This document shows, one piece after another, positions 4,681 to 25,314 of a stretch of 32,000 nt of DNA. Both the position numbers and the translations under genes were made by a program. The notes beneath the pieces are model-generated. The model saw only the letters and a program-made list of their open reading frames with translations, made no database searches and was not told the origin of the DNA. The stretch is from Methanocaldococcus jannaschii DSM 2661 (GTDB lineage Archaea; AGJL01; Methanococci; Methanococcales; Methanocaldococcaceae), in NCBI RefSeq assembly GCF_000091665.1, contig NC_000909.1, positions 212,871 through 244,870 on the forward strand, read 5' to 3'. Numbering within the stretch: position 1 is the stretch's first letter; each line of letters opens with the position of its first letter.

Positions 4681-4848
4681 TTAATGTTTAAAATGTTTTT
4701 TAAGTATTTCTTCAACTTTCCCATCTTTATCTTTTAAATATACATCTGGAGAGATATATTTTTTACCAATTAATTTTATTCTATCTCCAATTTTCTCATA
4801 GCCATCAAAACCTTTCCAAGTGTAAAATTGGTTAAAATGGTGTCTTTC
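4681..4848 (-). pseudogene. Displaced C-terminal 55 codons of the disrupted membrane-protein paralog
   Basis: Hand translation gives ERHHFNQFYTWKGFDGYEKIGDRIKLIGKKYISPDVYLKDKDGKVEEILKKHFKH, stop at 4683-4681. It aligns to the C-terminus of the 4085-4666 protein (WK.F.GY, YL.D.DG.VE). It has no start codon of its own and is in a different frame from 4925-5293. Confidence 0.7.
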
Positions 4849-4933
4849 AAAACTTCCTGAATAACCAAGGCACTAATGAATGCCTTCCTTTGGAAGGCGT
4901 TCAAATCTTCCTTAATAAATTTTATCAATTTTG
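4849..4933 (-). mobile_element. 85-bp hairpin-rich insertion interrupting the paralog gene
   Basis: Removing exactly 4849-4933 (85 nt, equal to 1 mod 3) joins ...YKDGFYGVF to ERHHFNQFYTWKG... in frame. The flanks are a 14-bp inverted repeat, GGTGTCTTTCAAAA at 4839-4852 and its reverse complement at 4929-4942. Internal overlapping hairpins: 4867-4872/4881-4886, 4882-4888/4892-4898 and 4892-4896/4907-4911. Confidence 0.55.
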
Positions 4934-5293
4934 AAAGACACCATAAAAGCCATCTTTATATATTTCAACCCTATATTTTTTAAAGCAAAATAAATAAATA
5001 ATTAAAAAGTAGGAGAACAACATAGTTAATCCTAAATATAAGTCAAAATTAAAAACAAAGCATATAAACAAAGCAAAAATAACAAATACTATGGTAAATG
5101 TCAATAAAATACTGTAAAACATATATGGAGAAAAGTTTTTCAAATTATCTACATAAACATAAATAATTTCCTTATTTTTTCTTTCTAATTTTGAGTATTT
5201 GATGAAAGCATATAGTGAAATAAATCCAAAAATAAAAGATAAAAATCCAGCGTAAAGATAAATAGCCAATCCAACCACATTCATTGTTCCCAC
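4925..5293 (-). CDS. N-terminal (TM) portion of the disrupted membrane-protein paralog, terminated by a stop inside the insertion
   Basis: 122-aa ORF ending ...[18 protein letters not shown] and the stop are encoded by the inserted segment. Its homology to the neighbouring gene continues at 4848-4681. Confidence 0.7.
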
Positions 5294-14833: not shown

Positions 14834-14910
14834 TGGTGGACTGGGCGGGATTTGAACCCGCGGCCTCCGCACAGCCAATGCGGCGCTCTCCCAGTCTGAG
14901 CTACCAGCCC
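14834..14910 (-). tRNA. tRNA-Ala (anticodon GGC), encoded CCA
   Basis: Reverse complement: GGGCTGG TA GCTC AGACTGGGA GAGC G CCGCA TTGGCTG TGCGG AGGCC GCGGG TTCAAAT CCCGC CCAGTCC A CCA. The G3:U70 alanine identity pair is present. Position 37 reads U, which is unusual. Confidence 0.85.
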
Positions 14911-14915
14911 ACAAA

Positions 14916-15017
14916 ACAATCAATCATCAAAGTTTAGGTATGTAATTAAATTTATTTAAAAACCCATTGGGTTTTTATATTTTCCATAGTAAATAAGTTT
15001 ATTTGATGATTGATTGT
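14916..15017. repeat. About 100-bp composite palindrome upstream of tRNA-Ala
   Basis: A 15-16-bp perfect inverted repeat, CAATCAATCATCAAA (14917-14931) and TTTGATGATTGATTG (15002-15016), encloses a near-concentric hairpin AAAAACCC-ATT-GGGTTTTT (14958-14976). Confidence 0.6.
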
Positions 15018-23693: not shown

Positions 23694-25314
23694 ATTAAAA
23701 TCAGACCGTTTCGGAATGGAAATGATATTATTAAACAACATAATCAGTGTAATTGTATAGATATGATTAAAATCAGACCGTTTCGGAATGGAAATATTTG
23801 ATGATTTGGTGGATTATACAAATAGAAATTAATTAAAATCAGACCGTTTCGGAATGGAAATTACTGTTAAATATTCAGATTTATTAATCAGTTATTTCCT
23901 ATTAAAATCAGACCGTTTCGGAATGGAAATGATTTTCTTATGTTTAAAATCCTTATGAACGCTCGGATATTAAAATCAGACCGTTTCGGAATGGAAATTC
24001 TTTATCTCTCTTTACAGTATCGTATCTTAATTTTATTAAAATCAGACCGTTTCGGAATGGAAATTTTTCAACAAGCATTTCTAACAAGTTTGGAGGTAAT
24101 ACTGCAACAATTTCAGTTAAAATCAGACCGTTTCGGAATGGAAACGTGATTGTAGAATTCTCATCTTCTTCTTGGGAGAGCCGATTAAAATCAGACCGTT
24201 TCGGAATGGAAATGATTGGATGAGGGATATATCCAAAACTCAAAAGGATTGATTAAAATCAGACCGTTTCGGAATGGAAATCTGTTAGGGAACCCTAAAA
24301 AGGTTCCCTTGAGGGTTCATTAAAATCAGACCGTTTCGGAATGGAAATCTGTTAGGGAACCCTAAAAAGGTTCCCTTGAGGGTTCATTAAAATCAGACCG
24401 TTTCGGAATGGAAATCTGTTAGGGAACCCTAAAAAGGTTCCCTTGAGGGTTCATTAAAATCAGACCGTTTCGGAATGGAAATCTGTTAGGGAACCCTAAA
24501 AAGGTTCCCTTGAGGGTTCATTAAAATCAGACCGTTTCGGAATGGAAATCTGTTAGGGAACCCTAAAAAGGTTCCCTTGAGGGTTCATTAAAATCAGACC
24601 GTTTCGGAATGGAAATCTGTTAGGGAACCCTAAAAAGGTTCCCTTGAGGGTTCATTAAAATCAGACCGTTTCGGAATGGAAATCTGTTAGGGAACCCTAA
24701 AAAGGTTCCCTTGAGGGTTCATTAAAATCAGACCGTTTCGGAATGGAAATTCATTTGCATCATTTGTGCTGGGTCTGGCTGACTCTGTGTGTCATTAAAA
24801 TCAGACTGTTTCGGAATGGAAATTTCTTGGAATTGCTAAGTGGTTTATGCATAGTTGCATTAAAATCAGACCGTTTCGGAATGGAAATATGAGATTCATT
24901 CTTTGATCGAGGGCGATAGAGGTTCATTAAAATCAGACCGTTTCGGAATGGAAATGAATTTTCGCACACGCGCTACATCTAATAAACAGATTTGATTAAA
25001 ATCAGACCGTTTCGGAATGGAAATGATGAAAAGAAAGCAATTGAAACAGCTATTATAACTTAATTAAAATCAGACCGTTTCGGAATGGAAATATACCATT
25101 AACAATTTCATATATTCTGTTTTTGTATTCAATCTTTTTATTAAAATCAGACCGTTTCGGAATGGAAACGCATAGATTATTTTTAAGCTGTTTTTTGGAT
25201 TTTCTAATTTTAAATTATTAAAATCAGACCGTTTCGGAATGGGAACAATGTTCTAAATTCTCCTTGTAATTCTCCTAATGTTGTATTAAAATCAGACCGT
25301 TTCGGAATAGAAAT
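23694..25314 (+). CRISPR. CRISPR array: 24 repeats of 30 nt and 23 spacers (35-51 nt)
   Basis: Consensus repeat ATTAAAATCAGACCGTTTCGGAATGGAAAT. Repeat starts: 23694, 23766, 23832, 23901, 23969, 24035, 24116, 24184, 24252, 24319, 24386, 24453, 24520, 24587, 24654, 24721, 24794, 24859, 24926, 24995, 25063, 25140, 25217, 25285. Variant repeats start at 24116, 24794, 25140, 25217 and 25285. Degeneracy at the right end, together with the ATGGAAAT 3' handle, indicates plus-strand transcription. Confidence 0.98.

Follow-up and report, generated by a model that had tools for sequence, protein, structure and literature searches.

An imperfectly palindromic 106-nt insertion, perhaps a MITE-type element, disrupts a small membrane-protein gene in Methanocaldococcus jannaschii

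Introduction

Repetition is a defining property of MITEs, and those of the IS630/mariner type carry TA as their duplication signature. For Methanocaldococcus jannaschii, a survey by Suyama, Lathe and Bork (FEBS Lett 2005) reportedly described 141 palindromic repeats of ~100 bp in three groups, MJRE1-3; these are said to be mostly extragenic, with a few copies inside genes, and the intragenic MJRE2 copies reportedly keep the frame of their host. Two other papers cite the MJRE palindromic repeats in this sense (PMC2229807, PMC2996958). The bacterial Correia/NEMIS, RUP and ERIC elements are 100-150-bp MITEs with inverted-repeat ends and a 2-bp TA duplication, which occur in tens to hundreds of copies and have identifiable parent IS families (PMC2229807). 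Rickettsia palindromic elements (RPE) are palindromic coding inserts that are in frame and tolerated (PMC2996958). The only IS of M. jannaschii documented for comparison is ISMja1, an archaeal IS6-like element with repeats of 19/22 nt starting with GA; most archaeal ISs tabulated with it show 8-bp duplications, none being recorded for ISMja1 itself (PMC6807381, Table 5).

The locus described here lies in a 32,000-nt stretch of the M. jannaschii DSM 2661 chromosome, hereafter the window, and consists of a ~100-bp palindrome within a protein-coding gene. It resembles MJRE1-3 in genome, palindromic form, size and the occasional intragenic position, and has a fully open frame of 34 codons; whereas the intragenic MJRE2 copies are reportedly in frame, the present 106-nt insertion breaks the frame. 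This likeness is one of description. No similar copy was seen in ~52 kb of M. jannaschii DNA, and the element is possibly one of the published MJRE repeats. With Correia/NEMIS, RUP and ERIC it shares its size, terminal inverted repeats, a hairpin spanning the whole element, a tiny duplication and landing in genes, but it would have duplicated AT instead of TA, and neither a further copy nor a parent is known. Like an RPE it is a ~100-bp palindromic insert in a protein-coding gene, but it is out of frame and truncating. The event is ordinary in kind, a miniature transposon-like insertion that makes a pseudogene; it offers a clean, datable case of a miniature palindromic element inactivating a gene of a model hyperthermophilic archaeon, with the exact empty site known from relatives.

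Results and discussion

A membrane-protein gene is interrupted within its most conserved motif

The window is AT-rich (30.8% G+C) and contains NucS, Ham1 NTPase and GlyRS genes, a CitG-like gene and a CRISPR array with 30-nt repeats. The disrupted gene, encoding a small membrane protein, is found in the interval from the CitG-like gene to the Ham1 NTPase gene, where its tandem paralog follows downstream (Table 1). Its 5' part belongs to an ORF at 4925-5293 on the minus strand, in which the ATG at 5284 is the probable start because orthologs begin with MNGIGL. Its 3' part belongs to a start-less open frame at 4848-4681 reading ERHHFNQFYTW...KKHFKH up to the stop. Both frames had been noted in the initial annotation and are present in the sequence, and the neighbouring gene taken there as a paralog is a true, though distant, one (27% identity, E = 5e-7).

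The insertion point falls within the most conserved motif of the protein family, YKDGFY^FNQFYTW, where the caret marks the point of insertion here and below. The 106 nt of the insert do not divide by three and so break the reading frame: measured against the 5' part, the 3' part is read in the +1 frame, and translation ends five codons past the junction, the last five sense codons of the 5' part (GVFQN) and its TGA stop being supplied by the element. The frame of the 3' part contains no ATG, GTG or TTG after the last upstream stop, and the C-terminal domain is therefore not expected to be made. Both halves of the gene are otherwise intact.

Table 1. Features of the disrupted gene, its paralog and the inserted element (window coordinates).
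Feature	Position	Strand	Basis or remarks
Disrupted gene, 5' part	4925..5284	-	ORF analysis, ortholog alignment
Disrupted gene, 3' part (FNQFYTWKGF...KKHFKH, stop)	4681..4836	-	Alignments, direct reading of sequence
Intact tandem paralog, 193 aa	4085..4666	-	ORF analysis, homology, synteny
106-nt insertion relative to orthologs	4837..4942	-	DNA and protein alignments
Terminal inverted repeat, 5' end in gene sense	4929..4944	.	14 nt in element (4929-4942); 16 nt perfect with AT
Terminal inverted repeat, 3' end in gene sense	4837..4852	.	14 nt in element (4839-4852); 16 nt perfect with AT
Central GC-rich hairpin a, GCCTTCC-AAA-GGAAGGC	4882..4898	.	7-bp stem, extendable to 12 nt at 92%
Hairpin b	4867-4886		
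Hairpin c	4892-4911		

Orthologs define the extent of the insertion

The ortholog search was performed with the repaired protein and recovered seven full-length relatives, all of 165-167 aa except one of 218 aa. Among them are the Methanotorris igneus ortholog (60% identity) and a vent-metagenome protein (65%). The motif of the relatives is ...Y(K/R/S)xGFY-F(N/H/E)(Q/R/K)...TW..., with nothing between GFY and F in any of them (7/7). DNA alignment of the M. jannaschii locus with those of M. igneus, Methanocaldococcus sp. FS406-22 and an ENA vent-metagenome contig (L007) gave a single clean gap of 106 columns against M. jannaschii, and the protein alignment agrees. The empty sites of the three other sequences, GG(C/T)TTTTAT^TTTAA(C/T)CAATTTTA, are almost alike and non-palindromic, and FS406-22 reads through YKDGFY^FNQFYTW without interruption, as do the intact orthologs of M. 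igneus and the vent-metagenome contig. The filled site of M. jannaschii is GGCTTTTAT (GGTGTCTTTCAAAA...76 nt...TTTTGAAAGACACCAT) TTTAACCAATTTTA, with the insert in brackets; the target is the T-rich site GGCTTTTAT^TTTAAC. Synteny supports the assignment: M. igneus carries GlyRS, CitG, the 166-aa gene, its 191-aa paralog and Ham1, so that the tandem pair is conserved. With 4837-4942 deleted, the gene encodes 165 aa, and this protein can be aligned with the M. igneus ortholog over its entire length (62% identity, E = 7e-75), gap-free at the junction; a deletion of 106 nt is the only one to yield gap-free alignment to the orthologs.

The insertion is composed of a 104-nt element, GGTGTCTTTCAAAA...TTTTGAAAGACACC (4839-4942), and one copy of the dinucleotide AT. 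Because AT flanks both ends (4943-4944 and 4837-4838), the boundary slides by up to 2 nt. Judged from the sequence, the event may have been either insertion of a 104-nt element with a 2-bp AT duplication or insertion of a 106-nt element without duplication; the target being TTTTATTTTAA, the two are indistinguishable, and the duplicated length is at most 2 bp. A 5-bp TTTTA duplication was ruled out, as the gene would stay frameshifted relative to its orthologs.

The initial annotation had drawn the ends differently. It proposed that an 85-nt hairpin element (4849-4933) entered a pre-existing near-palindromic 19-nt site, GGTGTCTTT^GAAAGACACC, which implies an uninterrupted M. jannaschii-like allele reading GFYGVFERHHFNQ. 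Deleting these 85 nt does fuse the two frames into one, and the resulting GFYGVF aligns loosely with GIAVYI of the distant paralog. Restoration of a frame does not by itself fix the ends, however, because deletions of 76 nt or 106 nt restore it equally well, and the ortholog alignments place the true ends 106 nt apart. The sequence GVF...ERHH is absent from all seven orthologous proteins and from the three aligned DNA sequences. The inverted repeat at 4839-4852 and 4929-4942 is perfect, as had been described, and extends to 16 nt, but its arms are not the two halves of a target: the ortholog-defined gap takes in both of them, so they belong to the insert, and GVFQN and ERHH are likewise encoded by the element and not by the gene. 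The 19-nt near-palindromic junction therefore never existed, its halves being the element's own terminal inverted repeats, and the apparent palindromic target arose from boundaries placed inside those repeats. Targeting of palindromes finds no counterpart in the non-palindromic empty sites either. We regard the 85-nt reading as highly improbable.

The same alignments bear on the idea that the gene split long ago into two stably maintained, separately translated genes, for which the calling of the 5' ORF as a gene in public assemblies could be adduced. Neither the DNA of FS406-22, M. igneus and the ENA contig nor any recovered ortholog protein contains the insert, the 3' part lacks an in-frame start codon, and the C-terminal part retains ~80% identity to that of M. 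igneus, all of which make such a split extremely unlikely. With orthologs that lack the insert and two halves that remain open and conserved, the interruption of the gene by an inserted hairpin-forming segment, as first proposed in the initial annotation along with a lineage-specific pseudogenisation, is upheld, and its suggested comparison with relatives gave loci uninterrupted by the insert in FS406-22, M. igneus and the ENA contig. We are confident that a lineage-specific DNA insertion has pseudogenised the gene, and both fragments can be annotated as one pseudogene. The insert is not an assembly artefact, because six independent Logan assemblies give the same sequence. The M. jannaschii-like contigs that were accessible all come from the same strain and match the window at 100% identity throughout the region.

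The element is an imperfect palindrome with perfect ends

The element as a whole is an imperfect palindrome of 35% G+C with a near-perfect 12-nt central hairpin and diverged mid-sections. In first-order Markov simulations, a perfect 16-nt inverted repeat such as that formed by its ends together with AT, with a spacer of 30-150 nt, was expected 0.01 times per window. The right-end sequence recurs as a third, partial copy inside the element (TTATTAAGGAAGATTTGAA versus TTATTCAGGAAGTTTTGAA). Folding predicts one long hairpin with hairpin a at its apex (RNA, -49.4 kcal/mol, z = -7.2 versus shuffles; DNA, z = -6.3 and -7.7 on the two strands). Three hairpins within the insert had been described as mutually exclusive in the initial annotation; all are present and hairpin a does exclude the other two, but b and c can form together. 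The element has no transposase gene; one frame, of 34 codons, is open throughout and has no homolog.

Two classes of structured sequence were considered and rejected. PATEs, the palindrome-associated elements derived from IS200/IS605, have a subterminal hairpin at each end, no terminal inverted repeats and no duplication; here no subterminal hairpins are found near the ends, which pair with each other. A C/D-box sRNA was rejected by eye, there being no RUGAUGA/CUGA pair in the right places.

The gene decays in parallel in related lineages

The FS406-22 copy (L010 9489-9987) has no insert, but a 1-nt frameshift divides it into ORFs of 80 and 77 aa. In M. bathoardescens (L009 9920-10000) the gene is wholly absent, with 81 nt separating CitG and the paralog. 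Frameshifted independently in the one and deleted in the other, the gene is dispensable in this clade. Together with a different insertion in a further lineage, described below, the same gene thus shows parallel decay by frameshift, deletion and insertion in sister lineages.

These losses also weigh against a gene that still works because its insert is taken out of the RNA as a bulge-helix-bulge intron or is skipped in translation by ribosomal bypassing. The insert is indeed a stable hairpin between two open gene halves, and like the archaeal bulge-helix-bulge introns of mRNAs and tRNAs it is a short intervening sequence closed by a helix. The geometry differs, however: the junctions lie across from one another at the foot of a continuous helix of 16-18 bp, and the two 3-nt bulges separated by 4 bp are missing, by which a bulge-helix-bulge intron was excluded. 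Bypass elements, as in T4 gene 60 and the mitochondrial 'byp' sequences, have matched take-off and landing codons with a stop directly after take-off. Matching TTT codons are present here 85 nt apart, but the stop comes two codons after the first rather than directly after it, and a bypass product would hold 7 extra residues within the most conserved motif. No Rfam match was found for the insert, and with the gene decaying in FS406-22 and lost in M. bathoardescens no selection for rescuing it is evident. Removal or skipping of the insert is accordingly very unlikely.

In another Methanocaldococcus lineage, represented by vent-metagenome contigs (L012 162-410 and L013; protein P0008), the ortholog carries a 249-nt insertion at another site, between KNLMP and STFNQ. 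This sequence has 46% G+C, folds very stably at -102.8 kcal/mol (z = -7.4) and has at its end a perfect 14-bp hairpin, ATAGTATGTGTGCT-CACAAA-AGCACACATACTAT. Neither an Rfam match nor a copy among the loci compared was found for it; it may represent a non-autonomous element of the IS200/IS605 type or else a structured RNA.

Searches for further copies

We searched for a second copy of the element with blastn-short and nhmmer. None was detected in the 32-kb window, in ~20 kb of flanking M. jannaschii DNA or in ~65 kb representing four relatives. The loci searched outside M. jannaschii came from M. igneus, M. bathoardescens, FS406-22 and vent metagenomes, and the related DNA covered amounts to about 130 kb. 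Larger collections were scanned with the terminal-repeat pair GGTGTCTTTC-N68-98-GAAAGACACC. The genome collection returned 18 matches, close to our rough chance estimate of ~17-34, all in bacterial or candidate-phylum genomes and with unrelated inner arms; the scan did not return the window's own locus, so that this region or the entire genome is masked or absent, which leaves the searched share of the M. jannaschii chromosome uncertain. Among the 65 matches in metagenomes none was related, and the repeat was never shared beyond the 10 searched bases except in one match reaching 13. Scans of viral contigs with the repeat pair, the central hairpin or a single arm gave noise only, and blastn gave no match in a plasmid collection that does not contain the M. 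jannaschii extrachromosomal element. At the protein level, the open 34-codon frame matched only itself among 1.84 billion representative proteins, and all open frames concatenated had no match among 5.8 billion proteins. An Rfam search of the element region gave no credible family.

The initial annotation had suggested a mobile or recombinogenic element; the uniformly negative searches for a second copy lend no support to mobility or repetition. It had also counted an insert without other copies in the genome against that proposal, and none were found as far as the data allow.

A different palindromic repeat family was caught by chance in the metagenome scan. Its members are ~104-118 nt long with ends GGTGTCTTTCGATTTTAATGTT(G/T)C, are unrelated to the present element and occur on many contigs of 41-50% G+C (L039, L047, L050, L051, L060, L069, L075 and others), including the JGI contigs Ga0105053/54/55, Ga0209491 and Ga0335396.

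Origin of the insertion

On balance we favour a recent, lineage-specific insertion of a MITE-type mobile element that made a pseudogene of its host. According to this model, a 104-nt non-coding element would have hit the M. jannaschii membrane-protein gene at the DNA level, presumably moved in trans by a DDE-type transposase recognising its ends; insertion into the T-rich site shifted the frame and introduced an early stop, and would have cost the protein its C-terminal domain. Consistent with the model, the terminal inverted repeats lie exactly at the boundaries of the insertion (14 nt, or 16 with AT), and the element is small (104-106 nt) without a transposase gene. The event was probably recent in the M. 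jannaschii lineage, since the ends are perfect and the gene halves are open and well conserved. The insertion, its exact extent, the empty sites of the relatives and the frameshift with its early stop are established by the sequences; mobility through a transposase, recency and loss of gene function are inferred. The main weakness of the MITE reading is that the searches found no second copy, repetition being a defining property of such elements. The possible AT duplication, being unlike the TA of IS630/mariner-type MITEs, also counts against it.

We know of no IS with ends matching the element. IS6-type ends often begin with GG and contain ...TT.CAAA, to which GGTGTCTTTCAAAA bears a loose resemblance. 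Derivation from ISMja1 itself does not fit: the element's ends start with GG and measure 14-16 nt, and the duplication is at most 2 bp.

The negative searches for a second copy or relative are the main support for a different origin, in which a unique piece of hairpin-forming DNA, perhaps of foreign or viral origin or left over from repair or replication, was captured once at a break and never formed a mobile family. A duplication of at most 2 bp would be compatible with microhomology-mediated joining. However, perfect terminal inverted repeats of 14-16 nt exactly at the boundaries are a hallmark of transposase substrates and unexpected for random DNA, and the internal third, partial copy of the end sequence also counts against capture; moreover, the searches could not verifiably cover the rest of the M. 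jannaschii genome. A single capture is unlikely, though it deserves consideration. That the element is truly single-copy, an orphan, perfectly terminated 104-nt palindrome with no relatives in any sequenced genome or metagenome, appears quite improbable. A new question would be opened only if it were such an orphan or were bypassed during expression. As a true orphan it could be an unrecognised cut-and-paste hairpin element of hyperthermophilic methanogens with a copy number of one; alternatively, the insert could be tolerated, with ribosomes or an RNA-processing activity skipping it and the gene functional. The insertion also provides a defined pair of target site and end sequence for work on small mobile elements in Methanocaldococcales.

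Other hairpin elements and repeats in the window

Perfect GC-rich hairpins with a stem of at least 7 bp and a 3-nt loop occur five times in the window, once as the centre of the element. The remaining four make up a pair of related two-hairpin modules, one on each side of taw1. The initial annotation had linked the element to this taw1-associated sequence; the kinship is unsupported and was rejected, as alignment reveals nothing past a generic CC-AAA-GG apex. The architecture is different, the taw1 modules having long direct duplications and no terminal inverted repeats.

The taw1 modules, each ~90 nt, lie at 29700-29845 (upstream) and 30790-30945 (downstream). They have in common the sequence GGGGTATCCCAATAGGG(G/C)G...CCCTATGG, and their first hairpins are alike in shape, not in sequence. 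A long direct repeat of the 3' end of the adjacent gene flanks each of them. In the first module the repeats are 29700-29727 and 29817-29844 (28 nt, 27/28 identical); in the second they are about 30795-30830 and 30905-30945 (roughly 35-41 nt) and more diverged. Such lengths, roughly 28-41 bp, are unusual for target duplications and near the 30-nt length of the CRISPR repeats of this genome; a staggered, Cas1-like integration of the modules is a speculative explanation. The CRISPR array of the window (23694-25314) has 24 repeats (Rfam CRISPR-DR13, 30 nt) and is located directly downstream of ribosomal protein genes.

A ~102-nt palindromic element at 14916-15017 lies directly upstream of a tRNA-Ala gene (minus strand, 14834-14910). 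It has perfect 16-nt inverted-repeat ends, ACAATCAATCATCAAA, for which the expectation is likewise 0.01 per window, and at its centre a AAAAACCCATTGGGTTTTT hairpin. Its architecture is the same as that of the element in the membrane-protein gene, but by eye the two have no obvious sequence similarity.
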